Source: an uncultured virus (IMG/VR IMGVR_UViG_3300036761_000818)
Taxonomy: Duplodnaviria > Heunggongvirae > Uroviricota > Caudoviricetes
Strand: one strand, 5' to 3'
DNA: 27,641 bases
Virus record (IMG/VR): IMGVR_UViG_3300036761_000818
Part shown: positions 5,804-21,066 of the stretch, piece by piece
How positions within the stretch are numbered: the first letter of the stretch is position 1
How the letters are laid out: every line of letters begins with the position of its first letter
Notes under the pieces: generated by a model
What the model saw: the letters and a program-made list of their open reading frames with translations, nothing else
Told to the model about the DNA's origin: nothing
Database searches by the model: none
Translations under genes and position numbers: made by a program

Positions 5804-5994
5804 TATCGCCTCCCTTGCTGCTGCATCTGCTCGTGCCAGCACGTCGGGCCGCAGACGTGCCCGTGCAGCGCCTCGATCGGGTCGGCTCCGTTCATGACGA
5901 GCTTGAGCCAGTCGCCGATCGCCTGGAAGAACGTCTTGCCGCTCGGCGGCGGTCCATGCTGCTGCTGCGTCCTACGGCGTCGCTGTCGGGCCAT
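5803..5994 (-). CDS. small basic hypothetical protein (HVCGPTCWH)
   Basis: Fills the gap between its neighbours, with overlaps at both ends. Confidence 0.55.
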   Translation of the reverse strand: MARQRRRRTQQQHGPPPSGKTFFQAIGDWLKLVMNGADPIEALHGHVCGPTCWHEQMQQQGRR

Positions 5995-6400
5995 CGTTCA
6001 AGTCCTCCGGGGTCAGGATGCGCATCTCGGGCTTCGTGTGCGGCTTCGCCTCCGCGCCTCCGTGGATCGCCTCCTCGACGATCGGCGCGACTACGCCCTG
6101 CGCATTCGCGTCGTCCACTGCGGCTCGGAGCACGTCCTTCGACTTCTTGTAGAGCGCCGGGTGCGCTGTCTTGAGCGGCTCCAGCGCGGCCTCCGAGCCC
6201 TTGACGACAGCCGTGAGCCCGTTCTCGAACTCTGCGGCTTGCGTTTTCCAGAGCTTCATCTGCGCGTAGAGCTTCGCCGCGGCGACGGCAAGCCCGCCGA
6301 GCGCAAGCGTGAGCGCGCCGATCGCCGCAACGATCGCGTTGATGTACTCGACGGCCGCGCCTCCAGACGGAGCGGCAGCGATGACGGTCACAAGGTCCAC
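5972..6400 (-). CDS. membrane protein, N-terminal TM (holin-like)
   Basis: AGGAG RBS; hydrophobic INAIVAAIGALTLALGGLAVAAA followed by amphipathic helices. Confidence 0.65.
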   Translation of the reverse strand: MDLVTVIAAAPSGGAAVEYINAIVAAIGALTLALGGLAVAAAKLYAQMKLWKTQAAEFENGLTAVVKGSEAALEPLKTAHPALYKKSKDVLRAAVDDANAQGVVAPIVEEAIHGGAEAKPHTKPEMRILTPEDLNDGPTATP

Positions 6401-6409
6401 GTTGATCTC

Positions 6410-6745
6410 CTACTTGGGCTCCGGTGGCGCAGCCGAAAGCTCCAGCTTCGCAGCCGTCCCTACGACCTCGAAGTCGATCGACGCCGAGAGCGCGCCCGCC
6501 TTCGCCGTGACCGTCGCCTTCCCCGCGCCGGTCGGGAAGACCTCGGCGACGAGATGCCCTTCGTCGTTCGTCTCGACCTCGACGACCTTCGGGTCGCTCG
6601 TCGCCCACTCTGGCGCGTTCGGCGGCGGTACGGGGGCTCCAGCCGCGTCGAGGAAACGCGCCGTCACCACGGTCTTCTGCATGTCATTCATCGAGGGCAT
6701 GTTCGATCCTTTCATAGCTATGAGGACCACGAGGCCGAGTCTCAC
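6410..6745 (-). CDS. Ig-like (Big_2-type) domain protein; alternative start at 6700
   Basis: PEWATSDPKVVEV...GAGKATVTAKAG pattern typical of Big_2; GTGA overlap at 6745. Confidence 0.7.
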   Translation of the reverse strand: MRLGLVVLIAMKGSNMPSMNDMQKTVVTARFLDAAGAPVPPPNAPEWATSDPKVVEVETNDEGHLVAEVFPTGAGKATVTAKAGALSASIDFEVVGTAAKLELSAAPPEPK

Positions 6746-7326
6746 CCCTCGACCCTCTTCCACTTGAAGCCGTGCGCCTTCGCCCATGAGGCCCCTCCCT
6801 TCGCCGTGTACTGCGCCTTCGGGAAGAGGATTGACCAGACCTTCATGGACGCCTTCCCGCAGCGGTAGACGCGGGCGAGGATACCAGATTTCCCGAACGC
6901 GATCGTCCTGACGACGCGCGACGGGCAGCGGGCGGGGCCACCGATGACGACGTGCCAGAACGCGGCCTTGCTCGGGTTCGTCTCGACCTTGCGCTCGCAC
7001 CCTCCGGGGGAGGCGGCTCCCGTCACCTGTGCGTCGGTGATTGTGCGCTCGGAGCCGGTCGCCGTGAGGACGCGGTAGCCGTCGGAGAGCTTCTGCATGA
7101 CGACGCCCTGACCGCCCTGGAACGAGAGCACCGTCCCGACGGGAAGGTGGTGGTTCGGTCGAGCGCGTTTCGGGTTCTTGCTCGTGGCGAACTTGATGGC
7201 CGCTTCCTTCGACGGGAACGGACCGAACGCTGCGTCCCACGTCTTCCGGCGGATCGGCGCGGCGACCTTCGCGACCTCGACCTGTGGCGTCTTCTTGAGA
7301 GCGCCGACGAACCATTCCTTGCTCAT
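6742..7326 (-). CDS. basic NP-segmented protein with C-terminal 'WHVV...FPKA...GF.W.RVEG' module
   Basis: ATGA coupling; KNP and TNP motifs; C-terminus aligns with the C-terminus of the SNF2 protein. Confidence 0.8.
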   Translation of the reverse strand: MSKEWFVGALKKTPQVEVAKVAAPIRRKTWDAAFGPFPSKEAAIKFATSKNPKRARPNHHLPVGTVLSFQGGQGVVMQKLSDGYRVLTATGSERTITDAQVTGAASPGGCERKVETNPSKAAFWHVVIGGPARCPSRVVRTIAFGKSGILARVYRCGKASMKVWSILFPKAQYTAKGGASWAKAHGFKWKRVEG

Positions 7327-8663
7327 GATCTCTCCGTTCCGTACGGCGCGAACACAGGGAGCGTGACCTTGCCGCCGCCGGGGTTGGCTACTGTCCCGAT
7401 CTTCGGCTTCTGCGTCGTGTCCGTGTAGCCCGGGTCGTGGATCACGATGTCCTGGAGCCCGACCTCGGCGTCGTCTGGATCGGCCATCTGCTCGTGAATG
7501 CGGACGCCGAAGTTGCCAGCGTGGAGATCGTAGAGGACGACGCCGGTCGCCTCGAAGAGTGCGCTCATGGCGACGGCGACGTTCTTCAGAAACGCGAACC
7601 GCGAGATCGCTTCGCTGAACTTCTTCCGAATCAACTTGACATTGGCTTTCATCCTGTCGTTATGGTCCTTCTCCTGCCATTTTTCGCTCTTCTTCAGCTT
7701 CACCCCCGCGAATCTGATGAAGTCCCTGCCGTCGAGAGCGATGTCGCCCAAACTTCCGATCTCTTGGTGGATTCTGTCAGTGACCTTGTACTCGTACTTC
7801 TCCATCGCAGTCTTGAGCGGCAAGACCTCCTCGCGCGAGATGGCGTAGAGGTTGCTGTCTTTAGAGTGCTTGCTTGGGAAGGCGCCGACGGTGAACGCTT
7901 CTTCATGCTCTTCCTTCGTGAGCACGAGCTTCACGACGCCGAAGACGATCGCGAAGCCGAGCCGGTACTTGTCCCTGTCGGGGCCGCGCTTCGACTGCAT
8001 GGTTCCGAAGTAGGCTTGGTTGATCGCCTCGGAGTCGTCATAGGTGACTTTCAAGACCTGATCTTCGTGCTGCGTCTTGAACGCGCATCCGAACGCGCCT
8101 TTGCCGAGTTCATTCGAGAGTTCGAGGCCAGTGGCCTCCTCGATCTTGCTCTTCCACCGCCCTCCCATCACCAGCTTGCGGAAGCACTCATGCTTCCAGT
8201 TGTTGCCGTGCTCATCCTCGATGATTTGCGTGCGGCGGCGGTGCATCGGACCGACCGTAGGAAGCTCGGGATCGTGTGGTGGCGCTGGACGTGCTGGATT
8301 GCTCGCATACCACTTCTTGCTCTTGTCGGTCTTCACCCAATGCTCCTTGTACCCCTTGCCGAGATACGTTACGGCGAAGTGTCTTTTTGCCGCTGCCAGC
8401 GCCTTGCTCTCGCTTCCGCACTGATCGACCTCGAACTCCCGATCGTCAATCTCGCTGCCTATCGCAGTGAACGAGAACACTTCTTCGCCCGTGTCGTCCA
8501 TGGCCACTTCGATGCGGCCGACAGGGCGCCCTCTTTCCCTGCCTTCGGCGTCGTCGCCCGTGTACCACGCGAATATCTCTCCCGTGCCATCGCTTGCGTG
8601 CTCAAGAGGCCCGAAGGTGAGAGTCCAGTGCTCGCCGCGCCGAGGCCCCATCGGGTTCTTCAT
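7323..8663 (-). CDS. protein kinase-like (ePK/APH fold) protein with N-terminal extra domain, 446 aa
   Basis: GGAGG RBS before MKNPMG; LGKGAFGCAF, VLKVT, DLHAGNFG, IVIHDPG. Confidence 0.85.
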   Translation of the reverse strand: MKNPMGPRRGEHWTLTFGPLEHASDGTGEIFAWYTGDDAEGRERGRPVGRIEVAMDDTGEEVFSFTAIGSEIDDREFEVDQCGSESKALAAAKRHFAVTYLGKGYKEHWVKTDKSKKWYASNPARPAPPHDPELPTVGPMHRRRTQIIEDEHGNNWKHECFRKLVMGGRWKSKIEEATGLELSNELGKGAFGCAFKTQHEDQVLKVTYDDSEAINQAYFGTMQSKRGPDRDKYRLGFAIVFGVVKLVLTKEEHEEAFTVGAFPSKHSKDSNLYAISREEVLPLKTAMEKYEYKVTDRIHQEIGSLGDIALDGRDFIRFAGVKLKKSEKWQEKDHNDRMKANVKLIRKKFSEAISRFAFLKNVAVAMSALFEATGVVLYDLHAGNFGVRIHEQMADPDDAEVGLQDIVIHDPGYTDTTQKPKIGTVANPGGGKVTLPVFAPYGTERS

Positions 8664-8710
8664 ATCGAATCCTCCGTGGCGTTGTCGGACCCTCGATGTA
8701 GACTGAGGAT

Positions 8711-9103
8711 ATGGCCGACTGGACGCCCACTGCCGCAATCGACTTCGACGGGACGATCGTCGAACATGCGTGGCCCAACATTGGGAAGCTCAAGCCGGGG
8801 GCGAAGACCGCCGTGGCGAGGCTGAAGGATGCCGGGTTCCATATCCTCATCTTCACCTGCCGAGCGAACCCGCCCGACGGCGGCAAGTTCGATGATCCCG
8901 ACGCCACGAAGCTCAAGGACATGGTGCGGTTCTTGAAGGAGCACGACATCCCCTTCGACGACGTGTGGACCGGAGCAGGGAAGCCCTTCGCGACGGCGTA
9001 CGTTGACGACAAGGCGATCCGGTACGGCCCCACCGCTGGCGGGCTCGACTGGCCAGAGATCGCCGAGTTCTTGATCCAGAGTCGTCACGCGGCCGTCGCG
9101 TAG
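8711..9103 (+). CDS. capless HAD-superfamily phosphatase
   Basis: AIDFDGTIV (motif I), IFTCR (II), GKP (III), YVDDKA (IV); GAGG RBS. Confidence 0.88.
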   Translation: MADWTPTAAIDFDGTIVEHAWPNIGKLKPGAKTAVARLKDAGFHILIFTCRANPPDGGKFDDPDATKLKDMVRFLKEHDIPFDDVWTGAGKPFATAYVDDKAIRYGPTAGGLDWPEIAEFLIQSRHAAVA

Positions 9104-9105
9104 GT

Positions 9106-9480
9106 TCATCGCTTCTTCTTCCGGCCGTCCTTCGGCTTTCGAGGGGGCTTCGGCTCGTCCTTCGGCGGCGCTTCGGGCGCGTCCTCTTCGTCGCCGCCGT
9201 GCATCAGGCAAGGTCCGCGCCTGTGCGGCGTGTTGGTGCTGAAGAGGCAGCATCCCTCTTTCAGCACGACGCCTACGTTCTCCTCGACGCGCTTCGCGAC
9301 GATGCGGAAGCCTGATTCGAGGCACGATGGGCACGCGACGTAGAACCGACGATCGCAACCCTCGCAGCCCTTGTACGGTTTCACTTCGATGATCGCGAGC
9401 GGGATGTTGCACTCAGAGCAGACGAACGCGCTGTCGTACAAATGGACCTTGCGTGAGGCGTGGGGCTGCATGGGAATCAT
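9106..9480 (-). CDS. Cys-rich Zn-finger protein with basic tail
   Basis: CSEC, CEGC, CPSC, CC...CLMH; TGATG coupling. Confidence 0.7.
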   Translation of the reverse strand: MIPMQPHASRKVHLYDSAFVCSECNIPLAIIEVKPYKGCEGCDRRFYVACPSCLESGFRIVAKRVEENVGVVLKEGCCLFSTNTPHRRGPCLMHGGDEEDAPEAPPKDEPKPPRKPKDGRKKKR

Positions 9481-9887
9481 CACAGGTTCTCCTTGAGCCA
9501 GCGCGGAGGACGCGACCACTCCAGCGTGTTCGGCCCCCTGAAGTGTACTCGAACCCCCGACACGAGGAACGCTCCCTCGTTCGCATCCTCTTCGGTGTGA
9601 TCGACTACGAGCGCTGGCCCACCGATCGCGAGATGGCCGATCTCGTGTAAGATCAGGCCGAGCTTCCAGTTGAGGCCGAGGTCTTCCGTGGCTCCAGCGT
9701 AGCAGATGCACGCAAACCTATGTCCTACGTGCATATACTGCCGTTCGCTCTCCTCGTGTTCTCTGTCGGCGCGAGCGCACCGAGCGATCTGGACGCGCTT
9801 GAGCCACTGCGCATGGCCGCGCCTCCCCGGGACCACGATCCCTTTGCGGACGGCAAGGAAGAGCTTCCTGACGCTCGGAGGGCTCAT
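9480..9887 (-). CDS. HEXXH zincin-like metallopeptidase
   Basis: GLILHEIGHL followed by EEDAN; GGAGG RBS and ATGA overlap. Confidence 0.72.
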   Translation of the reverse strand: MSPPSVRKLFLAVRKGIVVPGRRGHAQWLKRVQIARCARADREHEESERQYMHVGHRFACICYAGATEDLGLNWKLGLILHEIGHLAIGGPALVVDHTEEDANEGAFLVSGVRVHFRGPNTLEWSRPPRWLKENL

Positions 9888-10255
9888 GGCGCCTCCAGGC
9901 TCAAGTCGATCGCCAGAGCGCTTCTGACGCCCTCCATAGCCATCGCAGCGAGCCGGTGGGAGCCGTCCACTGGTAGCCCGGAGGTCGCGTCCACGATGAG
10001 GTACGTTGTTCGGGCGAGAACCCAAGCCTGGGGGCGGTAGCGCGCGACGGCCACCCTCTCGGCGACATCGGATCGCTGGAACGACTGCGCGAGCGCGCCG
10101 CCGTTCTTCTCGTAGAGCCACGCTACGGGATCGACGTTGACGACGGCGAACTGCGTCCGCGCCCACTCCTCCGGCCGCACGTAGAGCCACAGCTTCGCCG
10201 TTGGCGAAGGAGGCGCCCCGAACCACGCTTCGGCAACGGAGAGGAAGCGCATCAT
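9884..10255 (-). CDS. ParB/Srx-like domain protein
   Basis: LIVD...PVDGSHRLAAMAMEG motif; ATGA coupling. Confidence 0.65.
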   Translation of the reverse strand: MMRFLSVAEAWFGAPPSPTAKLWLYVRPEEWARTQFAVVNVDPVAWLYEKNGGALAQSFQRSDVAERVAVARYRPQAWVLARTTYLIVDATSGLPVDGSHRLAAMAMEGVRSALAIDLSLEAP

Positions 10256-10767
10256 TCGGACATCAGGAACTTGAGCGCGGCCTTCTGGTCCTTCTTCGTG
10301 ATCCTCACGTCGTTGTCGAAACCCCAATCCACGGCGGTATCGACTGCGGCTTGCGCCGCGTCCAGGCGCGTCTTGTACGGTCCGTCGTCGCTGAACGATT
10401 CGAGGACGTGCGGGGAGTCCATGCTCGCCACGACGAACCACCCCGCGCGCCTCTTCTTCACGTCAACGTACACTCCGGCCTCTCCGTCGCCGAGGTACGC
10501 CGCGGTGTCCATGTCCGCTCCGGTCCTGCCACGCGGGTTTCTCTTGGTGGGCTGCGCCCACGAGGCGTTCTGGTCGGGGTCGAGCCCCCAGGAGCGGACA
10601 AGGGTGCTCTTGGCGACGACCCTGTGCGCCCAGGTCTTCGGCAGGTTGTCGCGGGTGTGCTCCTTCGCGTCTTCCTTGAACTCCCACCCCGTTTCGACAA
10701 ACCACGGGGCGTCGAGTTCGGAGACGAGAACGTACCACTTGTAGCCCTTCTGATTGATCTTGCGCAC
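10252..10767 (-). CDS. two-module hypothetical protein split by KRNP
   Basis: GAGGAG RBS plus GTG; continuous ORF coupled to the next gene. Confidence 0.7.
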   Translation of the reverse strand: MRKINQKGYKWYVLVSELDAPWFVETGWEFKEDAKEHTRDNLPKTWAHRVVAKSTLVRSWGLDPDQNASWAQPTKRNPRGRTGADMDTAAYLGDGEAGVYVDVKKRRAGWFVVASMDSPHVLESFSDDGPYKTRLDAAQAAVDTAVDWGFDNDVRITKKDQKAALKFLMSE

Positions 10768-10784
10768 TTCAGGCTCCTCTTATA

Positions 10785-13700
10785 TTAGCCGTTGACCCTC
10801 GGAATGCCCTTCTCGACCTTCTCGCCCTCTTCGCCCGTCGGCGTGTGCCCCGGGTCGAAGATCACGACCATCCCAAGGCCATCGTCGCCGCCGTCGCCGG
10901 TCATTCCGCGCTGCGTCCTGACGCCGACGTTACCCGCGTGAACGTCGAGGAGAGGCGTCCCTTCGGCCTCCAGAACTTCCATGATCTGACCGACATATGG
11001 GAACCCGTCGCTGATGTTGTTGAGCGCGTTGCGCATGTTTTCCAGCGCCATGTCCTTCATGTGTTCTGTCTTGAACGCAACGAAGCGGCGGGATTCGATC
11101 TGGTACGATTGGAGCCCACTGAGCGCTCTGGCGACGAGGCGCGCATCGGTGTTGGGCGAGAGCCGCGGAGCGCCTTCTATCATCGCTCTGCCGTAGATCG
11201 ACCAGAGGTCGAGGAACGGCGTGACCTCCTCGCGCACGATCGCGTAGACGGGCCACGTCTTCCCGCGAAACGAGATGTTTGGCTCAAGTCGGAAGACGCC
11301 CCTCACGATGGCGAAACCCTCGAACCCGTAGTCGCCAACTTCCTGCCGCTTCCCGACCATCGCTTGCATGGGGCCTTCGGTCGGGTCGCGCGTGATCTTG
11401 AGAACCCACCGGCCGCTCTTGAACGCGAACGCGCAGCCGTAGTGGCCGCAGCCGAGCATCTTGCTCCAGTCGATGCTCTCGCCTTCGGGGAAGAGCTTCG
11501 ATACCTGTGAGACGATCCGCTTGCGGAACTCGCTGCTCTTGACGAGGTTCGTGACCCACCCAGGAGCCTTCTCGGGGTTGGCCGATGCCCCGTGCGACAT
11601 CTTTCGGAACTCCGCGATGTCTCCGACGAACCCGCCCGCGCTCGAAGGGTCTTCGTCTGCCATGAGTCCGTAGACCTCCGGCTCTGGCCGATCGGCGGAA
11701 GAGGACGGAGCGATGTCGGTCACGCGATAGACCAGCGCATCGTTCCCGAGATGCTGGATCGTGTCGCCGATGCGCACGTCAGACGCGCGCATGGTGCCGT
11801 ACTTCGCTTGCCCGGCACGGATGGCGGCGGCGGATTCATCTTCCTCGCGTTGACGGGCCGTCGCCTTCGTCTGCCTCTCGCCCTCGCGTGCCTTCTCGCG
11901 TCGAGCGACCTCGGGGTCGTCCACTGCCGTCCATGCGGCGTCGAGCGCATAGAACTTCCCTTCGCCCTGGACTGGCGCTGCGCCGTGGGCGGTTGCACCC
12001 CCGGTGAGCCGCACGCGGATCGCGCCCTTCCCGCGCCCGCGGGTCTGCCGCTCGACCACGCCCATCACCCGTGCAGGGGCGCCTCCGAAGCCGCGCGACA
12101 TCTGGTAGACCCGATCACCTTCTTCCGGCACCTTGCGGCCGTCGGGGTAGGTTGGGTTCATCCCGCAAGAGCACGGATTCTGCTCGCAGGAGCACGGATT
12201 CTGCTTCCAGTCGGCCATGACGAGAGGCTTCGCCGCTTTCTTCTCGAACTCGCGCTTCTCGTCTTCGGTGAAGAAGTCGAAGAACTTCTGCACCTGCCGC
12301 GTCGTCCCGCCTTCCTGCTTCACGAGCGCGGCGAGGTAGCGCATGAGCGTCGATGACTTCACGTTGTCGAGCGTGGCTGCGGCGAGAGCGGCGGGCTTCG
12401 GGAGCCTCCACTCCGCAGCGAACTTCTCTTCCAGCTTCTCGTTCATGTGGACGACGTATCCAGAGGAGATGACCTCCTCCGTCTTGAGGATGTTGACGGG
12501 CTTGCCCTTCGTGCAGAACGTGTACTTGACGCGACCGCACATCGATCCGCCAACTTCGCCGCTTACCTCCTGCACTTCCGAGCAGGTGTCGTCCTCTTCT
12601 TGGCACTTCTCAAGGAAGTCGTTGGCCGTAGCGATGGTTTCGACATCGACGCCTTCTACGTCTACGCACCGATCTCGTCTACTCGACTCTTGGTCGCAAT
12701 TCTCGTCGCCCTCGACGACCTCGGCGAAGCCCCTCTCGACCTGATCTTTCCACCATCGCTCGGCGAGTTGCGAGCGACCTCCGACCGGCGACGAGACGCA
12801 GAGGCCACCGACTTCCTGTGCTTCCTGGAGGCCGCGCTCGGTCGCCTCGTCGTCGGTGAGGAGCGACGCATAGCCCGCGGTGAGCGCGAGCCCCGAGTAG
12901 AGGAGGAAGCCCTGCCCGGCGCCCTTCTCTACCACGCCCTTCGGCGTGTGCGTGCGGAGGCACCCCGTCTGGCCGACCGGATCATCGAAGTAGCCGACGC
13001 CAACGACATCGAACTCGCCTTCGTCGGCAGCGTCGATCGGGTCGATGATGTTGACCTGGGACTTCTTGATGTCCCACATGACGCTGTAGAACTTCGGCAG
13101 CTTCTTCGACGGGTTGAGGAGCGTCGCGATGTAGACGTACGCATCGGCGTCTACGTCTTCTTCGCTGCTGTTCTCCTCCCATCGCATCTCGCTTTTCGGG
13201 ATGTGCTGCTCGATGATCTTGTGGCCGATCTCCTTGAGCATCTGGCTCCCCGTGAACCCACGACCCTTCGGGTCGAGCCAGAACGACGAGCCGCCCGTCG
13301 TGATCTTCGTCCACGTCCGCTTCTTGCCGCGGAACGTGTCCTCGATCGTGTGCCCGTCGGGAAGCGCGGCGAGCGCGGCGTCCACGCGCCGCTCGCGGGA
13401 GGCTTCCTGGTGGCCGACCTTCAGGAGCGTCTCCTGCGGCGTCTCGGGGTTCCTCACGGTTCGCTTCCATTCTCTTCCCATGGCGGTCAAGTCCTTTGAG
13501 TGCTCCACCTTGCGGAAGTGCGTCCTGGCGTACTCCAGGAGCTTCGCGGCATATCCTTGCCGCCTGTAGTTCTCGTCGGTGAAGACCTCTTTGATGACGG
13601 CCGATTGCTCGTTGTTCCACCGGCGACCAGCGCGCAGCGACAGACCGGAGATCGCTCGATCGTCGCCCTCTTCCGCCACGAAGCGTATCAGGTGGAAACT

Positions 13701-14108
13701 GTTGCTGCGACAGGCTTCATGGACGATATGCGGATTCCCTGTGCGGATGCTGCGGATGTCCGTCTCGCGCTCGCACTCGCTCAGTTCTGAGATGGGACCG
13801 AGGAGCCCCGGGAACCAACCCTCGTCCACGGTTTGCATCGGCGCCGCCTTCACGGGCGGCTTCCCCGTGCGCGGGTCGAGCTTGAGCTTCTTCCGAAGCT
13901 CCCATCTCGCGGCGAAGAGGACGCCGTGCCTCTCGCTGATCGCGGAGAGGCGCTCATCTACCTCTTGAGGGGGCTCGTAGTCCTTCGGCCATCGTAGACC
14001 GAACGCCGTCGCGACAGCGCCGTGCCCCAAGAGGAGCGTCTTCTCTTCGGCATCGAGCTTCGCAAGCTCGGTATCGATGACGGCAAGCTGTTCGCGATCG
14101 TCACTCAT
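10785..14108 (-). CDS. 1107-aa polyvalent polyprotein: GNAT, GNAT-like, unknown modules and C-terminal kinase
   Basis: GNAT motif A VFTDENYRRQGYAAKLL; second GNAT-like KGAGQGFLLY...RSQLAERWW; kinase LGCGHYGCAF/VLKIT/DVHAGNVG/VIFDPG; seven NP dipeptides. Confidence 0.85.
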   Translation of the reverse strand: MSDDREQLAVIDTELAKLDAEEKTLLLGHGAVATAFGLRWPKDYEPPQEVDERLSAISERHGVLFAARWELRKKLKLDPRTGKPPVKAAPMQTVDEGWFPGLLGPISELSECERETDIRSIRTGNPHIVHEACRSNSFHLIRFVAEEGDDRAISGLSLRAGRRWNNEQSAVIKEVFTDENYRRQGYAAKLLEYARTHFRKVEHSKDLTAMGREWKRTVRNPETPQETLLKVGHQEASRERRVDAALAALPDGHTIEDTFRGKKRTWTKITTGGSSFWLDPKGRGFTGSQMLKEIGHKIIEQHIPKSEMRWEENSSEEDVDADAYVYIATLLNPSKKLPKFYSVMWDIKKSQVNIIDPIDAADEGEFDVVGVGYFDDPVGQTGCLRTHTPKGVVEKGAGQGFLLYSGLALTAGYASLLTDDEATERGLQEAQEVGGLCVSSPVGGRSQLAERWWKDQVERGFAEVVEGDENCDQESSRRDRCVDVEGVDVETIATANDFLEKCQEEDDTCSEVQEVSGEVGGSMCGRVKYTFCTKGKPVNILKTEEVISSGYVVHMNEKLEEKFAAEWRLPKPAALAAATLDNVKSSTLMRYLAALVKQEGGTTRQVQKFFDFFTEDEKREFEKKAAKPLVMADWKQNPCSCEQNPCSCGMNPTYPDGRKVPEEGDRVYQMSRGFGGAPARVMGVVERQTRGRGKGAIRVRLTGGATAHGAAPVQGEGKFYALDAAWTAVDDPEVARREKAREGERQTKATARQREEDESAAAIRAGQAKYGTMRASDVRIGDTIQHLGNDALVYRVTDIAPSSSADRPEPEVYGLMADEDPSSAGGFVGDIAEFRKMSHGASANPEKAPGWVTNLVKSSEFRKRIVSQVSKLFPEGESIDWSKMLGCGHYGCAFAFKSGRWVLKITRDPTEGPMQAMVGKRQEVGDYGFEGFAIVRGVFRLEPNISFRGKTWPVYAIVREEVTPFLDLWSIYGRAMIEGAPRLSPNTDARLVARALSGLQSYQIESRRFVAFKTEHMKDMALENMRNALNNISDGFPYVGQIMEVLEAEGTPLLDVHAGNVGVRTQRGMTGDGGDDGLGMVVIFDPGHTPTGEEGEKVEKGIPRVNG

Positions 14109-14111
14109 CCC

Positions 14112-14735
14112 TCAAGGCCCCGTCCGAAAGCCCTTGGCGAAGTCGAGCAGCAAGCCGTACGACCCGGCTGCTGCTCCGACTCCGACGAGCACGCTGTTCT
14201 GCGGCTTCACGCCAAGCATGTACGCAAGCCCTCCCGCCACCGCGCCGATGCCGATGAAGACCGCGTACGGTGCGCGCGGAACGTCTTCGGGTGTGGCCTT
14301 CGGCCTCATCATCTGCTCTTCGTAGACGGCCTGTGCCTGGGCGGCTTGCCATTCTGCGGACATCGGCGGCATCGGGACCGGCCTCCGGGCTTCAGGCGGC
14401 AGCATCGAGATGATGCCGTTCAACTCGGCATTATCGACGATCCCGTGGGCGCTCTTGAAGATGTGGAGGAGTTGCTCGGCGATCGTCTCCCCTGGCTTCT
14501 CGTTGAACGTGACGAGCCACGTCCCGCCGCCCATCGCGCTCGCAAGCTGGATGTTGAACGGGTTGGGCTGTCCCTCGATGAACTGGAAGTCCTTGATCGC
14601 GTCCTCGGCGTTGACGCCCGGCGCAAAGGTGACGATGAGGTTGCCGAGGACACGCGGCAACCTCGGAACGTCTGGCAACGCATGGAGCGTGTCCAGAACG
14701 AACGGCATTTGACCGAGCTTCGTATAGCCGCCCAT
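14112..14735 (-). CDS. membrane protein with C-terminal TM hairpin
   Basis: YAVFIGIGAVAGGLAYML and VLVGVGAAAGSYGLLL; abuts the SNF2 stop. Confidence 0.75.
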   Translation of the reverse strand: MGGYTKLGQMPFVLDTLHALPDVPRLPRVLGNLIVTFAPGVNAEDAIKDFQFIEGQPNPFNIQLASAMGGGTWLVTFNEKPGETIAEQLLHIFKSAHGIVDNAELNGIISMLPPEARRPVPMPPMSAEWQAAQAQAVYEEQMMRPKATPEDVPRAPYAVFIGIGAVAGGLAYMLGVKPQNSVLVGVGAAAGSYGLLLDFAKGFRTGP

Positions 14736-17700
14736 TTACCCCTCCACACGAATCCAAGAGAAGCCGTTCAAGCTGGCCCAATCGGCAGCTTCCTCTGGCT
14801 CGTACAGCGCCTTCGGGAACTCGAACCGTTGGACAGCCGACCCTTCTCCGTTTTTGCTCTCGTACACAAACGTCCGCACGTCTTCCTGCCCCGTGATCCC
14901 CTCCGAGAGCTTCCTGCCGCGGATGGGCTCGACGACGACGACGTGCCACATTCCCTGCTCGTGTGGGTTCTTCCCGGCGCCCGGCGCGGCGCCGACCTGT
15001 CGGCGGTACTTCGACGCGAGCTTGATCGCAGCCGCCCACTGCTTGTCCGTGAGCCCTCCCTTGGTCCTGATCTGCTCGGCGAGCGAATGGCCGAAGTCTC
15101 CGTCGAACTTCGAGAACCCCATGTCGTTGCGCTGGCACGCGCGATCCTGATCGCACGCTGCAAGCGAGGCGAGCGCGCCAGCGGCCCACTTCTCGACGGC
15201 CGTGTTCGCAGGGTGCGCCCCACCGGGCCTCGGCGCTGGAGGGCCACCGCCCGACGTTCGCTTGCCACGGACTTCGGCTGGCTCGTTGAGGACTCCGTAC
15301 TTCGAGAGCATCCTGTCGGCTGCGGCCCACTGCTTGTCGGTGAGCCCGCCGCGCAGGAGGTCGCGGTAGATCGATGCGCCGAAGTCCTGGTCGCCCGGCG
15401 ACCCGAACGAGCGCTTGGCGATCTCCGCGAGCATGAACCCGATCTCCTCTTCGCGTGCGGTCACTCCCTTGCGGCGAACCGACGCCACGCCGGGCGCAGG
15501 TGCGGGCGCAGGTGCGGGCGGGCGCTCCGGCGCCGGTGGGGGCGCCGGAGCGCGTGGAGGCACCGGAGCGCGCGTGGGCGCGGGTGGCGGCGCCCCTGGG
15601 CGCGTGAGTTGCGGAGGCGCTCCGACGCGCGTGGGCTCTGGCACCGGGCGCAACAGCACCGGCGCTTCATCGTCGCCACACGCCCCCTCGGCCTCCAACG
15701 CGAGCTTGGCGGCGCCCTCAAGGTCGTCAGCCTCGGTGACGAGGACCGCCTCCGGGTCCATCGACGCGGCGCCGATCACGGCTTCGATCAGTTCGATCTT
15801 CTTCTTGTTGATAGCGGCGATCTTCCGGTCCATCTCGTGGTCTGCGACGAGCACCTTGATCGTCACGTTCTTGAACTGGCCGATGCGGTGGATACGGTCC
15901 TGCGCCTGAAGGTTGAGCGCTGGCGTCCACGTCTCCTCGATGAAGATCGCGGTGGTCGCGCGCGTGAGCGTGATCGCGACGCCAGAGGCGCCGATCGTGC
16001 CCGCGACGCCGCGGAGGTTCCCGCGCTGGAACGTCTCCTCGATTGCGCTCCGCTTCCTCGGGCTGATCGCGCCGGTGATGAGCGCCCATCCGCCCGCCTC
16101 ACGGCCGAACTTCTCGTAGATGGCCTGGACGGGCTCGATGTGGTCTGCGAAGACGACGATCGGCTCGCCGCGGTCCACGTACTCCTGCACGATCCGCAGC
16201 GCCGCCGGAATCTTCGCGTTCGCGAGGATGGCGCGCACCTTCGATAGCTCGTTGAAGGGGATGAAGTCCTGCGCTCGGCCGTGCGCGTACTCCTGCGCTT
16301 CCTTGAGCCGCGTTGCCTCGTCTGGCTCCTCTTCCTCCTCCCCGCCCTCGTCTACCTCCTCTCCCTTCTCCTGCGCCTTCTTCTGGCGCTTCTCCAACGC
16401 CTTCGCACGCTTCTCGTCGGCCTTGATGTACTTCTCCTGCTCCCCCTCGAAGAGATCCTCGAATCGTTCTTGCCGACCCTTCTCGACATCGGCGAGGAGT
16501 GCGTCGAGCGCCTCCTTGTCCTCGGGCTTGATCCTGACGGCGACGTGCTCGCGTGTCTTGGGCGGAAGCTCCTTGAGCACGGCATGTTTCGAGTACCGAA
16601 ACATGCAGCGCTTGAGAAGCTCGGGAACGCTCGGATGTGGAGTCCACGTTCCATCGCGGTTCTGACGGAAGAGGCTGTCGAACCGCTTCCGCGTCCCGAA
16701 CACGTCCTTCGCGCAGCCCGTCGCGACAAGGACGGCCCATAGCTCGGTGGGCTCGTTCAACATCGGCGTGCCGGTGAGGAGCCACGACCGGCCCTTCTCA
16801 GCGCGCACGTACTCGGCAAGCGCGCGGAACCTGCGGGCACGGTTCGACATCTTCGCCGACTTCCGCGTCCTGACGATGTGCGCCTCGTCGGCGATGAGGA
16901 CCGTTCCCTCTGGAGGGGGCGTGACCGGGCTCATGCCAGAGAGGCGCTCGGCCTGTGCAACCTCCGTAGCGCCTACGAGTTCCGTCTCCCCTTCTTCGGC
17001 GCCGGGAGGCGTCCATCGGAACGACTCCGGCTTCCCTCTCCGCTCCCACTCATCAAGGAGCGAGATGGCGTCGGCGTGCTCCGATGGCGTCACGGGGAGG
17101 ATGTCGTAGTTCGTGATGACGATCTCGCCGGGCCTCGGCCAGACGAAGCTCCCGCGCCCTTCGAGGACGGTGATGCCCTGCTCGGGCTCAAGGTAGTCGA
17201 GCCCCGCGCGCGTGCGAACGCTGCACGAGCCATAGTCGGGGCGCCAGTTGCAGATTTCGCGCAGCCAGACGCCCTTCGCCACGGCGGGCGAGATCACGAG
17301 AACCGGCGCATTGTTGGGGAGCGCGACGAGCGAGATGATCGTCTTGCCGAGCCCCGGATCATGACCGAGGAGGCCCGTCTTCCGCGCCGAGAGCCACTGG
17401 ATCGACTTCCTCTGGTAGTCGTAGAGCTTGAGGTTGCGCTTGGCGAGGAGCTTGTTCGTGATGTCGGCGCGCTCGTCTGCGCCCTCGACATCGGCTCTCG
17501 CCTCTTCGGCCTTCTCCTGGAGGCGCGCCGTGAGCTTCGGGTCGATGACCTTCACGTCGAACCCGGCGTCCTGCACCGCCTTGATGAGCGCTGGCACGCT
17601 TCGGACCTCGCCCACCTGCGCCTGGAAGTCGGGGTTCCAGAAGAACCCGACGGCCTTCGCTGCGTTGAGGTAGCGGTCGAAGTCCTCGCGCGGAACCTTG

Positions 17701-17924
17701 TCCCTGTCGAGAGAGACGCTCACGCGGTCGTCGGGGAGGAGAGCGAGGATGGCGCACGTCCTTCGGAGCGGGCTCACTTCGCGAGCGGCCTCGAAGCACC
17801 TCTGGCAGTGGACCGTCCAGTTCGGACGGAGGCCACCGAGGATTCCGAGCCCCTTCGGCACTCTTGCCCGGCAAACAGCGCAAGGCGCATCGAAAATGTT
17901 CGCGCCGTTGTACGAGACGGACAT
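14736..17924 (-). CDS. SNF2/SWI2-family ATPase with N-terminal Zn finger and C-terminal accessory modules, 1062 aa
   Basis: LYDYQ, GHDPGLGKT, LIADEAH, LLTGTPMLN, QAQDRIHRIGQ; N-terminal CAVC...HCQRC; likely start MSVSYNG. Confidence 0.92.
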   Translation of the reverse strand: MSVSYNGANIFDAPCAVCRARVPKGLGILGGLRPNWTVHCQRCFEAAREVSPLRRTCAILALLPDDRVSVSLDRDKVPREDFDRYLNAAKAVGFFWNPDFQAQVGEVRSVPALIKAVQDAGFDVKVIDPKLTARLQEKAEEARADVEGADERADITNKLLAKRNLKLYDYQRKSIQWLSARKTGLLGHDPGLGKTIISLVALPNNAPVLVISPAVAKGVWLREICNWRPDYGSCSVRTRAGLDYLEPEQGITVLEGRGSFVWPRPGEIVITNYDILPVTPSEHADAISLLDEWERRGKPESFRWTPPGAEEGETELVGATEVAQAERLSGMSPVTPPPEGTVLIADEAHIVRTRKSAKMSNRARRFRALAEYVRAEKGRSWLLTGTPMLNEPTELWAVLVATGCAKDVFGTRKRFDSLFRQNRDGTWTPHPSVPELLKRCMFRYSKHAVLKELPPKTREHVAVRIKPEDKEALDALLADVEKGRQERFEDLFEGEQEKYIKADEKRAKALEKRQKKAQEKGEEVDEGGEEEEEPDEATRLKEAQEYAHGRAQDFIPFNELSKVRAILANAKIPAALRIVQEYVDRGEPIVVFADHIEPVQAIYEKFGREAGGWALITGAISPRKRSAIEETFQRGNLRGVAGTIGASGVAITLTRATTAIFIEETWTPALNLQAQDRIHRIGQFKNVTIKVLVADHEMDRKIAAINKKKIELIEAVIGAASMDPEAVLVTEADDLEGAAKLALEAEGACGDDEAPVLLRPVPEPTRVGAPPQLTRPGAPPPAPTRAPVPPRAPAPPPAPERPPAPAPAPAPGVASVRRKGVTAREEEIGFMLAEIAKRSFGSPGDQDFGASIYRDLLRGGLTDKQWAAADRMLSKYGVLNEPAEVRGKRTSGGGPPAPRPGGAHPANTAVEKWAAGALASLAACDQDRACQRNDMGFSKFDGDFGHSLAEQIRTKGGLTDKQWAAAIKLASKYRRQVGAAPGAGKNPHEQGMWHVVVVEPIRGRKLSEGITGQEDVRTFVYESKNGEGSAVQRFEFPKALYEPEEAADWASLNGFSWIRVEG

Positions 17925-17926
17925 TT

Positions 17927-18127
17927 TCAGACCCTCGCCGGTTCCTGCGGTTGGCCCGCGTAGATGGTGAAGACGCCATCCGACTTCGCGCGCAAGCACG
18001 CGATGCACGGGCGCTTCCAGAACGTCTCCAGATCGAACGCCTCCGCACCGGCCTCAGAGAGAGGAATCCCGCAGTACGTCTTATCCGAATCGTTCGGCCG
18101 GAGGTGGACGAGTTCCTGTTCGCTCAC
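17927..18127 (-). CDS. small Zn-binding protein (H...C...CxxC)
   Basis: GTGA overlap; VHL...TYCG...CIAC. Confidence 0.6.
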   Translation of the reverse strand: MSEQELVHLRPNDSDKTYCGIPLSEAGAEAFDLETFWKRPCIACLRAKSDGVFTIYAGQPQEPARV

Positions 18128-21066
18128 GCGCCCGCTTCCTCTCTCGCAAGCTCCACGAGGATCATCGGCGTGATCTTCGCCATGACCGCCTTGACGGTAG
18201 GCTCTTCCCATCCATCGTCGTACTTCGACTTCCCCTTCACGGGGTCGTCGAAGATGGTTTTGCCGCCGTACGAGACATGGATGTCCCACGCGCCGGGCTT
18301 GCCGTACTCGTGCCCGATGACCTTTACCTGCTTCCTACCGACAGACGTATACACGTCGGCATCGATCCGGCGTCTGTCAAACGCCGACTGGAGCAGCGCT
18401 TCCTTCATGGAATCGAAGAACTTCATCGACTCTTCGGAGAGGTCTTCGGCCGACGGCATGAGGAGATCGGGGCGCCGCTTCGCGACGATCGCTCGGAACC
18501 GCGAGAGCATGAGCACCACGTCCTTGTCGTCCTCCATCTTCTCCGTCTCGGCGAGCTTCTTGTTGCCTACCTTCAGAATCGACTTCCTGCCGCCATCGTA
18601 GCGGCTTCCTTCCCGTTCGAGTATCCACCGGCGATCACGATCCGGGTCGTCCGGGTTGGAGGGGAGGTAGAAGGTTTCGTAGCCGCTCTCCTTGAAGCCC
18701 TTGTCCCTCTCAATGTCCTTGAACTTCTTCTCCACGTCTGGAACGAACTTGAGCTTCTTGACCTTCGACGTGGGCTTCCAGTCGGGCGGGCGCTTCACCA
18801 CGACATCCCTGATCCGCTTCAACTCCTGGAGCGAAAGAGCGACCCTGGCGATGTTGTCGGTGAGCGCGGCGGCATACCTGTCATCGTGACCATGGAAGCC
18901 GACGAGATGCACGACTTCGTGAAGCGCGATGGCGTGGATGAGCTTCAGGTCTTCATCGCTTCGCAGCGAGTAAAGGTCGCCAGCCTTGATCGACCCGCCT
19001 CGGAACGGGTTGAGCATGAGCCACTCTTCCCCCTCCTCGTCCTTGATGTACTCGCCCTTCGTCGCGCCCCACGTCGAGTTCTCCAAGTCCCACTCTTCCT
19101 TGAAAATCCAGCCGACGCCGTACGTCGCGCCCTTCTCGATCGCCGAGAGGAGCACGCAGCACACGCTCGACCAGAACTTCGCGATCTTGCGCAGCGTGGG
19201 CGACATCGCCTCCGGCGTGAACTTCGGCGAGACGTGGAAGTCCTCGATCGACGCCTCGATGTAGAAGTCGGGCTCCCACGTCAACTGCTGGACGATCGCT
19301 TCGACCTGATCCGCCCCCTTGACGCCCTTCGTGGCGAGCATCTGCAAGATCATCTCGGCCACGTCGGGCAAGAGGGCGAAGTCGGGACGCGCGCTCGGCG
19401 TGCCCTCTTCGTCGTCCTCGCCGATGACCTCGATCTCCTCGATGGGAACGGCGTTCGGCGCCATGCCCTTCGGGACGCCGCCAGCGGGGAACGGCTTCCA
19501 GATCACGATGTCGCCGGGCTGCACTTCATCGGGCTTCTTCAGGAGGTACTTCACTTCCTCCCCTGGCGGAAGCTCCTCGCCTGGAGCGAGCGGGCGGTAG
19601 CCGGGCGGAATCTCGGTCACGATGTCGGGCTTGCCGCGTTCCGCTGAAGGACCGCCGATCGGCGACGGTCCATCGCCAGTCGGGATGATCGGAACCGTCG
19701 GGACGGCGACATCGCCGGGCACCGTCGGCTTCGTTGTGATCCCCTCGGGAGGTGGCGCCGTGCCCTCTGCGGCGTGAACTATCTCCTCCTCTTCGCGCTT
19801 CAACCCGTTCCCGGCGAGAATCTCCTTGATCTTGTCTATGTTCTCGCGCTCGACGACCTTCTCGGCCGCACCTATCTTCTGCAAGATCATGGCTTTGAGG
19901 TCGCCCTGACCCTCTGCCTTGGCCTTGAACTTCCCCGAGCCGCGCCACTTCTTCTTGAGGATGTTCCGCTTCTTCTTGACGGCCGTCATCGTGTCGCGCG
20001 AGAGGAGCCGGAGGTAGTCCGAGACGGAGCCGCGGAGCGCCCAATCGCGGAAGTCCATCCGGTTCGCGTAGAGAACGTCTGTGCTCTTGGCGAGGATTTC
20101 GAGCGTGAAGTAGCCGGGGAGGTCGGAGGCGATCGAGTGCTCGAACATGTAGATGCCGTTCTTCCGAACGAAGAACCCCTTCGCCTTCCGCGCCCGCGGC
20201 CGGTAGTGGAGCCGCGCCTTCCCGAGCCCCTTGTACTCATCTGCTTCGTCGCCGTCTTCGAGGTCTGCGTAGATGCGCTCGCCGTTCAGCGTGATCCTGA
20301 CGCGCGGGAGGTAGCAGCGCTCGATGACGTTCCGGGCCGACTCCTTGTCGGTCTTCTTGTCGGCGGGCATCCGAACGGTGAGCTTCGTGCCGTCGAGGAA
20401 CGGCGCCTTGTCGTCGTGCTCAAGCTCCTGGCTCGCGAACTTGCCTCGGGCGATGTGGTTCTGCGTGTGAATCTCGTACGAGAGCCACGGGAGGAGGAGG
20501 AGCCGCTTCGCCTCTCCGAACCCGCCAGCCGCGCCCTCGACGCCCGTCTTTCCCGACGGGCCGAGCGTCAGGAACTTCCCGAAGAGCACTTCCTCCGTCA
20601 TGCCGCCGCCGTCATCCTCGCACGACACGAGGAGCGTCCCGTCGCTCTGCTCTTCCGTCTTGAGGGTGACGCGCGTGTACCCGTCCGCTCCGTGCTTCTG
20701 CTGCCCGGCGTCCACTGCGTTCTGGATCGCCTCACGCCACCACATCTGCTGCCACGGGTTGTAGTCGGACAGCGCCTTCGTGTAGAACTCCTCGCCGATT
20801 CTGAGGAACGCGACCTTCACGCCCTCGGCGGGGTTCACTCGCGTTTCGCCACCGAAAACCTGGACGGCGACCGACTTCACGCCATTCTCGACGGGGTAGT
20901 CGCCGATGACCTCTGCGGCGCCCATGTAGACCGCGGCCATGAGCGACCCGTAGCCGTCCGTGTCGGAGTCGGCGGTGTAGAGTCCCGGGTCAAGGGCCTC
21001 GACACGCTCGGTCAGGTTGCGCGCTTGCAGCGGACCCCGGGTGGACTTCGTGGTTGAGCGGCTCAT
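18124..21066 (-). CDS. GHKL (MORC/Hsp90-like) ATPase fused to HEXXH metallopeptidase, 980 aa
   Basis: REAIQNAVDA, DDGGGM, SGK...GGFGEA, GTKLTV; later IALHEVVH...GHD; AGGAG RBS. Confidence 0.85.
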   Translation of the reverse strand: MSRSTTKSTRGPLQARNLTERVEALDPGLYTADSDTDGYGSLMAAVYMGAAEVIGDYPVENGVKSVAVQVFGGETRVNPAEGVKVAFLRIGEEFYTKALSDYNPWQQMWWREAIQNAVDAGQQKHGADGYTRVTLKTEEQSDGTLLVSCEDDGGGMTEEVLFGKFLTLGPSGKTGVEGAAGGFGEAKRLLLLPWLSYEIHTQNHIARGKFASQELEHDDKAPFLDGTKLTVRMPADKKTDKESARNVIERCYLPRVRITLNGERIYADLEDGDEADEYKGLGKARLHYRPRARKAKGFFVRKNGIYMFEHSIASDLPGYFTLEILAKSTDVLYANRMDFRDWALRGSVSDYLRLLSRDTMTAVKKKRNILKKKWRGSGKFKAKAEGQGDLKAMILQKIGAAEKVVERENIDKIKEILAGNGLKREEEEIVHAAEGTAPPPEGITTKPTVPGDVAVPTVPIIPTGDGPSPIGGPSAERGKPDIVTEIPPGYRPLAPGEELPPGEEVKYLLKKPDEVQPGDIVIWKPFPAGGVPKGMAPNAVPIEEIEVIGEDDEEGTPSARPDFALLPDVAEMILQMLATKGVKGADQVEAIVQQLTWEPDFYIEASIEDFHVSPKFTPEAMSPTLRKIAKFWSSVCCVLLSAIEKGATYGVGWIFKEEWDLENSTWGATKGEYIKDEEGEEWLMLNPFRGGSIKAGDLYSLRSDEDLKLIHAIALHEVVHLVGFHGHDDRYAAALTDNIARVALSLQELKRIRDVVVKRPPDWKPTSKVKKLKFVPDVEKKFKDIERDKGFKESGYETFYLPSNPDDPDRDRRWILEREGSRYDGGRKSILKVGNKKLAETEKMEDDKDVVLMLSRFRAIVAKRRPDLLMPSAEDLSEESMKFFDSMKEALLQSAFDRRRIDADVYTSVGRKQVKVIGHEYGKPGAWDIHVSYGGKTIFDDPVKGKSKYDDGWEEPTVKAVMAKITPMILVELAREEAGA

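Follow-up and report, generated by a model that had tools for sequence, protein, structure and literature searches.

A block of minus-strand genes from an uncultured tailed phage (Caudoviricetes; IMG/VR record IMGVR_UViG_3300036761_000818) raises the question of whether the dipeptide Asn-Pro (NP) punctuates the multi-domain proteins encoded there and, if so, what this punctuation is for. The window, i.e., the whole stretch of DNA analysed, comprises 27,641 nucleotides with a GC content of 64%. An earlier reading made from the letters alone (hereafter, the sequence-only reading) proposed that NP lies at the junctions of a mix-and-match set of enzymes encoded between positions 6742 and 21066, where it would serve for processing or packaging. 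On sequence evidence, the block is one of the polyvalent proteins of Iyer et al. (2017), in which unrelated enzymes share one polypeptide: a protein of 1107 amino acids (aa) combines a GNAT acetyltransferase and a kinase-like fold with three more modules, another combines a SNF2-family helicase with extra modules, and a third a GHKL ATPase with a HExxH domain. In the sub-family built of the kinase-like and GNAT modules, NP is, as the alignments indicate, a short linear mark at module edges travelling with the shuffled modules; as a rule for the whole block, the proposal is wrong. As far as literature searches show, such a junction-specific mark is undescribed.

All 16 NP sites named in the sequence-only reading are present, its numbers corresponding to the low end of the Pro codon; four others in the same range had been left out (aa 58 of a 207-aa protein, aa 125 of the SNF2 protein, and aa 103 and 686 of the GHKL protein). 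Asn is indeed scarce (1.5-3.9% per protein), and the enrichment over shuffled proteins holds. In the curated set of ten minus-strand proteins of the range (4577 aa), 20 NP were observed vs. 6.73 expected from composition (2.97-fold), a number reached in 0 of 5000 within-protein shuffles, whereas the window genes outside the range contain 7 vs. 5.21 expected. In the window gene set, NP has the highest observed-to-expected ratio of all 400 dipeptides. The excess is carried by the proteins of 194, 446, and 1107 aa (12 NP vs. 2.04 expected; in the 1107-aa protein, 7 vs. 1.32). The GHKL protein contains 4 NP vs. 1.12 expected, and the SNF2 protein shows no excess (2 vs. 1.91).

By itself, the raw count makes the excess look larger than it is, since proteins in general favour NP. 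Among genes of related viral and metagenome loci, 343 with high GC contain 171 NP vs. 113.9 expected (1.50-fold) and 110 with low GC contain 65 vs. 42.8 (1.52-fold). The open reading frames (ORFs) behind these figures were GC3-filtered, and the duplicate contigs L011, L020, L031, L032, L048, and L052 were dropped; a first estimate of 1.22, made with unfiltered greedy ORFs, was discarded since it included spurious frames. Measured against the 1.5-fold background, about half its own ratio, the block gives a Poisson p of 0.004, or 0.015 with a tandem NP triple (see below) counted once. In 151 homologues of the 1107-aa protein sharing 50% identity or less, 292 NP were found vs. 150.7 expected (1.94-fold), making NP third of the 400 dipeptides, and the excess reaches 2.4-2.6-fold at lengths of 300-1200 aa.

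The location of these sites was analysed first in the 1107-aa protein (10785..14108; minus strand, as are the features below unless stated otherwise). Searched against 1.84 billion representative proteins, it gave 460 matches at E <= 0.001, of which the best 150 were taken. Modules were then set without reference to NP, from the endpoints of 178 local hits of the query re-aligned to 151 homologues. Nearly every match covers only one part of the query; the homologues cover 20-24% of its length and have its modules differently combined and ordered, next to partner domains of the RadC/JAB, SprT-like zincin, SAP, DUF5661, and Zn-ribbon types. The mix-and-match organization is thus supported, and alignments do break at NP: e.g., the query order GNAT-NP-A2-B corresponds to GNAT-NP-B in the homologue P0002.

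The first module, A (aa 45-222, 13443..13976; 59 local hits), consists of an N-terminal helical part and the GNAT acetyltransferase (Pfam hit at aa 141-201, 6.2e-5). It ends in WKRTVR followed by NP220-221 (13446..13451), which marks its junction with module A2 and coincides with the largest internal peak of alignment endpoints (31 ends at aa 220/221); stand-alone relatives of module A end just ahead of this position. Module A2 (aa 223-310, 13179..13442) is a small alpha/beta unit, to the same limits of which a stand-alone 87-aa protein (P0095) aligns. Module B (aa 319-611, 12276..13154; 17 local hits) belongs to no known family. It is separated from module C by the tandem triple QNPCSC, QNPCSC, MNPTYP (aa 637-652, 12153..12200), where alignments start: NP637 and NP644 lie in a short Cys-rich linker repeat before module C and NP651 at its start, with 15 alignment starts within -2 to +6 residues of NP651. 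Module C (aa 650-843, 11580..12161; 22 local hits), likewise of no known family, also occurs in giant proteins of 1371-5019 aa. Finally, NP844-845 (11574..11579) forms the N-edge of module D (aa 845-1107, 10788..11576), a protein-kinase-like unit with a shortened C-lobe ending in IPRVNG, and 21 alignments start at aa 845/846.

Thus, the three largest internal endpoint peaks, at aa 220/221 (31), 650 (17), and 845/846 (21), coincide with NP220, NP651, and NP844, and five or seven random sites match them as well in 0.7-1% of 20,000 permutations (p = 0.007-0.01). The claim that NP marks junctions stands for eight of the 16 listed sites: RNP220, the triple 637/644/651, and ANP844 in this protein, together with the ANP in the tail of the 446-aa protein, TNP117 of the 194-aa protein, and KNP1014 of the SNF2 protein. 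It fails for two. LNP332, with no alignment endpoints nearby, belongs to a conserved motif (ATLLNP) inside module B, and VNP78 of the GHKL protein lies inside a conserved N-terminal domain. The remaining six fall in neither class (GNP125 of the 1107-aa protein, also off the peaks; MKNP and SNP of the 446-aa protein; KNP51 of the 194-aa protein; SNP804 of the GHKL protein; and RNP77 of a 171-aa protein).

Structure prediction of the 1107-aa protein was informative for its last module. A single-sequence AlphaFold model of the whole chain was unusable (pLDDT 37), A2 being its sole stretch with pLDDT 61-80; the ESM Atlas yielded only scores under 0.9, none usable, for module B and nothing for module C. 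For module D, an AF2 model from a 62-sequence alignment reached pLDDT 91.5 and pTM 0.90, and all 50 PDB entries listed by Foldseek were protein kinases or aminoglycoside phosphotransferases (best E 5.7e-4; the low TM of ~0.3 is expected because the match is partial). In the kinase alignment, K, D, E, D-x-H-x-x-N-x-G, and D-x-G are invariant. Module D (263 aa) fits the kinase of polyvalent proteins, with the catalytic residues kept and the C-terminal subdomain lost. In the model, aa 839-842 have pLDDT below 50, so NP844 borders a low-confidence linker, and the tail Asn (N1106) comes after the last beta bridge of the kinase domain.

The second kinase-like protein of the block (446 aa, 7323..8663) begins with MKNP and ends in IGTVANP plus 18 aa; alignment and BLASTP to other kinases place its kinase-like domain in the family of module D. 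Its ATG start at 8663 is preferred because the TTG-start form overlaps a plus-strand gene (8711-9103). In this family, the C-edge reads FDPGHTPT, 10-13 residues, and then a hydrophobic residue, any residue, Asn, and a last position at which P is more frequent than G and G than others; stand-alone kinases stop 0-13 residues past the tail Asn, often with R/K-rich tails. The edge differs in kind from that of GNAT since its Asn belongs to the module. Ten kinase relatives reside on viral contigs of 17-169 kb and others on metagenome contigs, and two scans of 185,579 species genomes revealed none; this distribution fits lytic phages or unsampled hosts.

The GNAT module ends in W-K-[KR]-A-V-(R). Among fused forms, NP follows in 11 of 18, with N-G-P in two more, and among forms ending there in one of 14; the sequences after NP are unrelated, which places the swap point directly behind it. 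In the best GNAT tree, the NP state changes seven times, of which at least two changes are forced, and seven of the 29 inner branches are well supported, a resolution too low for counting independent gains. In 106 boundary windows of the homologues (kinase C-edge not counted), no dipeptide is more enriched than NP (18 vs. 3.74 expected, 4.8-fold; binomial p 9e-8, a value treating related sequences as independent). The other pairs give 0.42-fold (DP), 1.3 (SP), 1.4 (TP), and 1.3 (GP); a generic helix cap would not single out Asn in this way. At least five unrelated edge types carry NP: the C-edge of GNAT, the N-edge of module B, both edges of the kinase, and the N-edge of a C-terminal module shared by two proteins of the block (see below).

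Chain ends are similarly affected. Of 152 proteins, 19 have an NP among their first 15 residues and 23 among their last 15; these stretches hold 6.7% (N) and 7.7% (C) of all NP vs. 2.3% of residues, the share of other xP pairs being at most 4.2%. Ordinary genes of the loci show no terminal concentration of NP, save a slight N-terminal trend. The N-terminal sequences include M-N-P-P, M-K-N-P, and M-R-T-T-N-P; several stand-alone proteins start with M-N-P or M-K-N-P, and one ends in NP.

An edge of the same kind unites the SNF2 protein with the 194-aa protein (6742..7326). The 1090-aa SNF2-family helicase with added modules (14736..18008) matches Pfam SNF2-rel_dom (1.5e-20) and Helicase_C (1.2e-7) as well as phrog_62 (1.4e-75). 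BLASTP of the two proteins gives a single significant alignment (E 2e-10), which starts at N117-P118 of the 194-aa protein and N1014-P1015 of the SNF2 protein and reaches both C-termini. The shared module thus comprises aa 117-194 (78 aa, 6745-6978) of the former and the last 77 aa, from NP1014 (14739-14969), of the latter. It belongs to no known family. R-V-E-G is the last tetrapeptide of both copies; that of the 1107-aa protein is R-V-N-G. A protein search with the 194-aa protein found no homologue besides itself. Downstream of the helicase core, aa 800-1010 of the SNF2 protein form a Pro/Ala-rich linker with two similar repeats of ~50 aa (G-G-L-T-D-K-Q-W-A-A), one of them matching phrog_21015.

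The 980-aa protein (18124..21066) is where the generalization to the whole block breaks down. Its HATPase_c match (1.1e-5) falls just under the Pfam cut-off and is accompanied by weak Hsp90/TopoIV-B matches; its C-terminal HExxH metallopeptidase-like domain has no sequence match to any peptidase in Pfam or PDB. Its nine homologues are all built in the same way, an acidic linker joining the ATPase to the peptidase-like part. The residues H716, E717, H720, H727, and D728 are invariant in all ten sequences, as are N78 and L685-N686-P687, the latter thirty residues before HExxH, so that the NP sites at N78 and N686 are, by their conservation, domain-internal residues and not junctions; SNP804 is not conserved in the three homologues extending past it. 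With acidic linkers and domain-internal NPs in this family and no NP excess in the SNF2 protein, the rule does not extend beyond the kinase/GNAT sub-family. The sequence-only reading had also named HEXXH proteins as candidate proteases. Two exist, the 980-aa protein with its invariant HExxH and a small ORF with a HEIGH motif (9480..9887, 135 aa from an internal ATG), recognized by the motif only and of uncertain coding status, which is a candidate minimal zincin; the longer 248-aa ORF containing it gave no Pfam or PHROG hit.

Beyond the module edges, NP seems to follow the lineage. In four loci whose kinases have the NP tail (the window, L008, L012, and L013), the non-kinase genes contain 55 NP vs. 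24.7 expected (2.23-fold), compared with 135 vs. 106.8 (1.26-fold) in 18 loci with other kinase tails; L009, L034, and L035 were also dropped here as duplicate contigs, together with loci under 8 kb. Such an excess is not predicted by a purely structural role of NP. L013 reaches 4.05-fold and encodes a 526-aa hyperbasic protein (L013:2466-4043, plus strand) with 7 NP vs. 0.89 expected, most of them followed by R/K runs. The first 320 residues of this protein are extremely Arg/Lys-rich and contain NP; Gly/Ala-rich hydrophobic segments follow, and there is no PHROG hit. An internal DNA-binding protein or a membrane protein is conceivable. In the same locus, the kinase gene is immediately followed by a gene (L013:10753-11340, plus strand) for an M23-type metallo-endopeptidase or endolysin-like protein (phrog_7767, E 2e-13). 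All-vs-all BLAST of 675 ORFs found the kinase and one SNF2 as the only families common to the window and the related loci.

Which process could keep NP at these places? The explanation towards which we lean, tentatively, is that a phage factor acting in trans recognizes exposed NP, likeliest an endopeptidase, which would cut at the dipeptide or next to it. Modules would thereby be released, or short tails removed from the termini, inside the capsid or once the proteins have entered the host. Whereas the enrichment and its position at module edges are shown, that something reads NP and that reading means cutting are both inferences. Consistent with such a cut are the NP counts, the coincidence with the endpoint peaks, the shared module starting at NP, the kinase tail, the terminal NPs, and the low-confidence linker next to NP844, which suggests accessibility. 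The points suggesting a recognition motif are the specificity for Asn, the GNAT NP confined to fused forms, the lineage effect, the NP-studded basic protein, and the short maturation motifs of other phages (see below). Several observations weigh on the other side. Just 17 of the 106 boundary windows contain NP, and the edge counts represent sequences and not independent events. In relatives, module C begins with R-P-[KT], with NP in 0 of 21 N-edge windows, and 16 relatives longer than 1200 aa contain NP at the background level (1.46-fold). Residues around NP show a K/R preference at +3 and +4 and otherwise almost none. Conserved NPs also occur inside domains: module B has ATLLNP, and all ten GHKL-peptidase proteins have LNP 30 residues ahead of HExxH. 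The lineage comparison comprises four loci, one of which is the window, and L019 and L028 reach ~2.2-fold without the NP tail. A cut at an extreme-terminal NP would remove almost nothing, which fits a cap or a binding tag better. Lastly, cleavage at NP is itself only predicted, and neither of the HEXXH candidates, nor any other protease, is linked to NP.

A structural cap comes close to a recognition motif (most simply a protease site) as an explanation; it is possible, if doubtful. NP would stop the last helix or strand of one module and cap the first helix of the next, and nothing would cut or bind it. Asn is favoured as an N-cap or left-handed-turn residue and Pro at the first helix position. 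The model of module D is in line with this, since N844 is the residue preceding a one-turn helix that starts at P845, i.e., in the N-cap position (another point against a cut), and the kinase tail Asn follows the last beta bridge. The cap would also account for NP at GNAT ends only where the chain continues, for N-G-P and N-G variants at the same positions, for the retention of NP right at the N-terminus of stand-alone proteins, where cutting would achieve nothing, and for the 1.5-fold level already seen in ordinary phage genes. However, the equally good cap pairs DP, SP, TP, and GP do not share the 4.8-fold enrichment, and the capping-box signal is absent (D/E at +3, 16.8% vs. 14.1% background). 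The cap leaves unexplained the seven NP of the hyperbasic, probably unfolded L013 protein, the NP excess across other genes of the NP-tail loci, and the lack of such an excess in the giant relatives. A wider form of the cutting hypothesis is likewise possible, if doubtful. In it, Asn-Pro would be the cleavage code of a high-GC phage lineage, and a phage or host endopeptidase with a rare Asn-Pro specificity would cut polyvalent enzymes and hyperbasic internal proteins (e.g., the 526-aa protein of L013) alike into separate modules and peptides, in the capsid or after injection.

The other explanations are less probable still. That NP has no function, being a favoured dipeptide at a few edges of shared ancestry amplified by shuffling, would be consistent with the 1.5-fold background, the 17 of 106 boundary windows, the poorly resolved GNAT tree with as few as two forced changes, and the absence of an excess of paired NPs; it is improbable given NP at no fewer than five unrelated edge types, its persistence at edges while the flanks diverge completely, and the permutation result in the query alone. 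A binding tag, in which NP with nearby basic residues would be bound and not cut by a phage factor that loads these proteins into the capsid or passes them to a transfer machine, would explain the enrichment towards both ends of stand-alone chains, frequently accompanied by R/K tails, the K/R preference at +4 (21.3% vs. 12.8% background), and the covariation of the NP excess across the genes of a locus. We consider it quite improbable: the motif consists of very few residues, basic tails occur without NP in stand-alone GNATs, the tag has no known partner, and virion genes were not identified in the window. Even less credible is protease-free self-cleavage by Asn cyclization at Asn-Pro, as in FlhB/YscU and reovirus mu-1. 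Uncatalysed Asn-Pro cleavage is slow, which counts against it. The analogy with FlhB/YscU drawn in the sequence-only reading does not hold either, since NPTH is absent from all 22 NP sites of the window and all 292 of the homologues. The kinase tail does conserve Asn while the next residue varies (P more often than G or others), and two families of asparagine peptide lyases cut between Asn and Pro; nevertheless, these lyases require a specific fold around Asn (PMC3207474), whereas the NPs here flank unrelated folds and low-confidence linkers, making fold-specific autocleavage very improbable.

Causes at the level of DNA were also considered and rejected. No flanking bases are common to the 22 in-frame AAYCCN sites, and overall the hexamer is not over-represented (30 copies on the coding strand vs. 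21 on the opposite one); hence, a DNA motif or recombination site is excluded as the cause. A spacer excised between paired NPs was likewise discarded (12 close pairs vs. 11.1 expected, P = 0.42). The 2A/StopGo motif has the form D-[VI]-E-x-N-P-G-P; none of the 22 window and 292 homologue NP sites has its NPGP core. The PPEP-type NPP is absent from the 22 sites of the window and present at 28 of the 292 in homologues.

The rest of the window provides the context. Two plus-strand genes have PHROG matches, one for a Dda/PIF1-like helicase (3-1196) and the other for a serine recombinase (1827-2585), and the minus-strand genes are tightly packed from ~5 kb to the window end. An ORF at 5972-6400 has a weak tape-measure PHROG match, and a small minus-strand protein (6410-6730) matches a bacterial Ig-like domain (Big_1/invasin D3, E 3.6e-5) below the Pfam cut-off; these are the sole hints of virion genes. 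PHROG and Pfam annotation of the window recognized no capsid, portal, terminase, or maturation protease. The plus-strand gene inside the block (8711-9103) matches phrog_1238 ("phosphoheptose isomerase", E 5.7e-24) and, weakly, a HAD hydrolase. Three small, tightly packed ORFs of uncertain coding status follow on the minus strand (9106-10255), i.e., a Zn-ribbon protein with a Lys-rich tail, the 135-aa HEIGH ORF, and a 123-aa ORF; they may represent small cassette-like units such as have been described near polyvalent genes. Next in gene order comes the 171-aa protein with RNP77 (the RNP placed at 10534 in the sequence-only reading), and the 207-aa protein with NP at aa 58 lies between the 1107-aa and SNF2 genes, both on the minus strand. 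A comparison of the window with the phage record collection gave no match in DNA or protein. The database copy of the 1107-aa protein (P0001) differs from the window translation in one residue (aa 972, Y vs. H), and a metagenome contig of 3550 bases (L011) contains these genes with 99.9-100% identity.

Polyvalent proteins are generally regarded as cargo sent ahead by phages and plasmids to disarm the host, and their processing has so far only been predicted. If NP is a cut site, the mature products could be read from sequence, processing could be tested with mutants, and the protease would have an unusual and useful specificity; as a cleavage code, it would allow the phage to encode fusions and yet deliver free enzymes. 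If it is only a cap, it would provide a simple design rule for insulating fused modules. On either reading, the NP mark helps to delimit modules in phage dark matter.

Among the systems comparable with the proposed reading of NP by a phage factor, the head-maturation proteases of T4-like and phiKZ-like phages cut many virion, internal, and injected proteins at a motif with about two fixed residues, and short N-terminal targeting peptides are removed in the process. Their motifs end in Glu, whereas the mark described here is Asn-Pro, and no maturation protease, capsid, or portal was identified in the window. The demarcation motifs of polymorphic toxins (e.g., VENN in CdiA) are also short conserved peptides at the joints of interchangeable modules. 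These motifs are longer and lie in conserved DNA supporting recombination; in contrast, there is no conserved DNA here beyond the six bases of the two codons.

In the literature on Asn-Pro autocleavage in bacteriophages, searches returned FlhB-type and unrelated work only. The asparagine peptide lyases of families N6 (FlhB/YscU) and N7 (reovirus mu-1) share the scissile bond between Asn and Pro, with Asn as the key residue, and self-cleave in one dedicated fold, N6 at Asn/Pro-Thr-His (PMC3207474). Here, NPTH is found at 0 of 314 sites, many unrelated modules are involved, and the window NPs flank kinase, GNAT, and other folds instead of the four-strand, four-helix fold of N6. PPEP-1 is a metalloprotease of the HEXXH type, the substrate gene of which adjoins the protease gene; it cuts natural sites V-N-P/P-V-P (at the slash), so that an x-N-P context is read by a zincin, although Pro is required after NP (PMC10413326). 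Compared at the Pfam level, the HExxH proteins of the window showed no relationship to the PPEPs.

The closest counterpart is the polyvalent proteins themselves, described in phages and conjugative elements by Iyer, Burroughs, Anand, de Souza, and Aravind in 2017 (PMC5512222). The block and its homologues agree with them in combining several unrelated effector domains per polypeptide, in nearby smaller ORFs that look like cassettes, and in the recurrent parts, i.e., GNAT, a kinase lacking the C-terminal subdomain, SNF2-type helicases, RadC/JAB, and zincin peptidases. It differs in the mark at the edges: the main text of that paper uses neither "linker" nor "boundar", "Asn-Pro", or "proline", and its three uses of "asparagine" concern other motifs. 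The same work predicted that polyvalent proteins are processed by built-in zincin metallopeptidases (PMC5512222), a precedent for an endopeptidase that would act at Asn-Pro.

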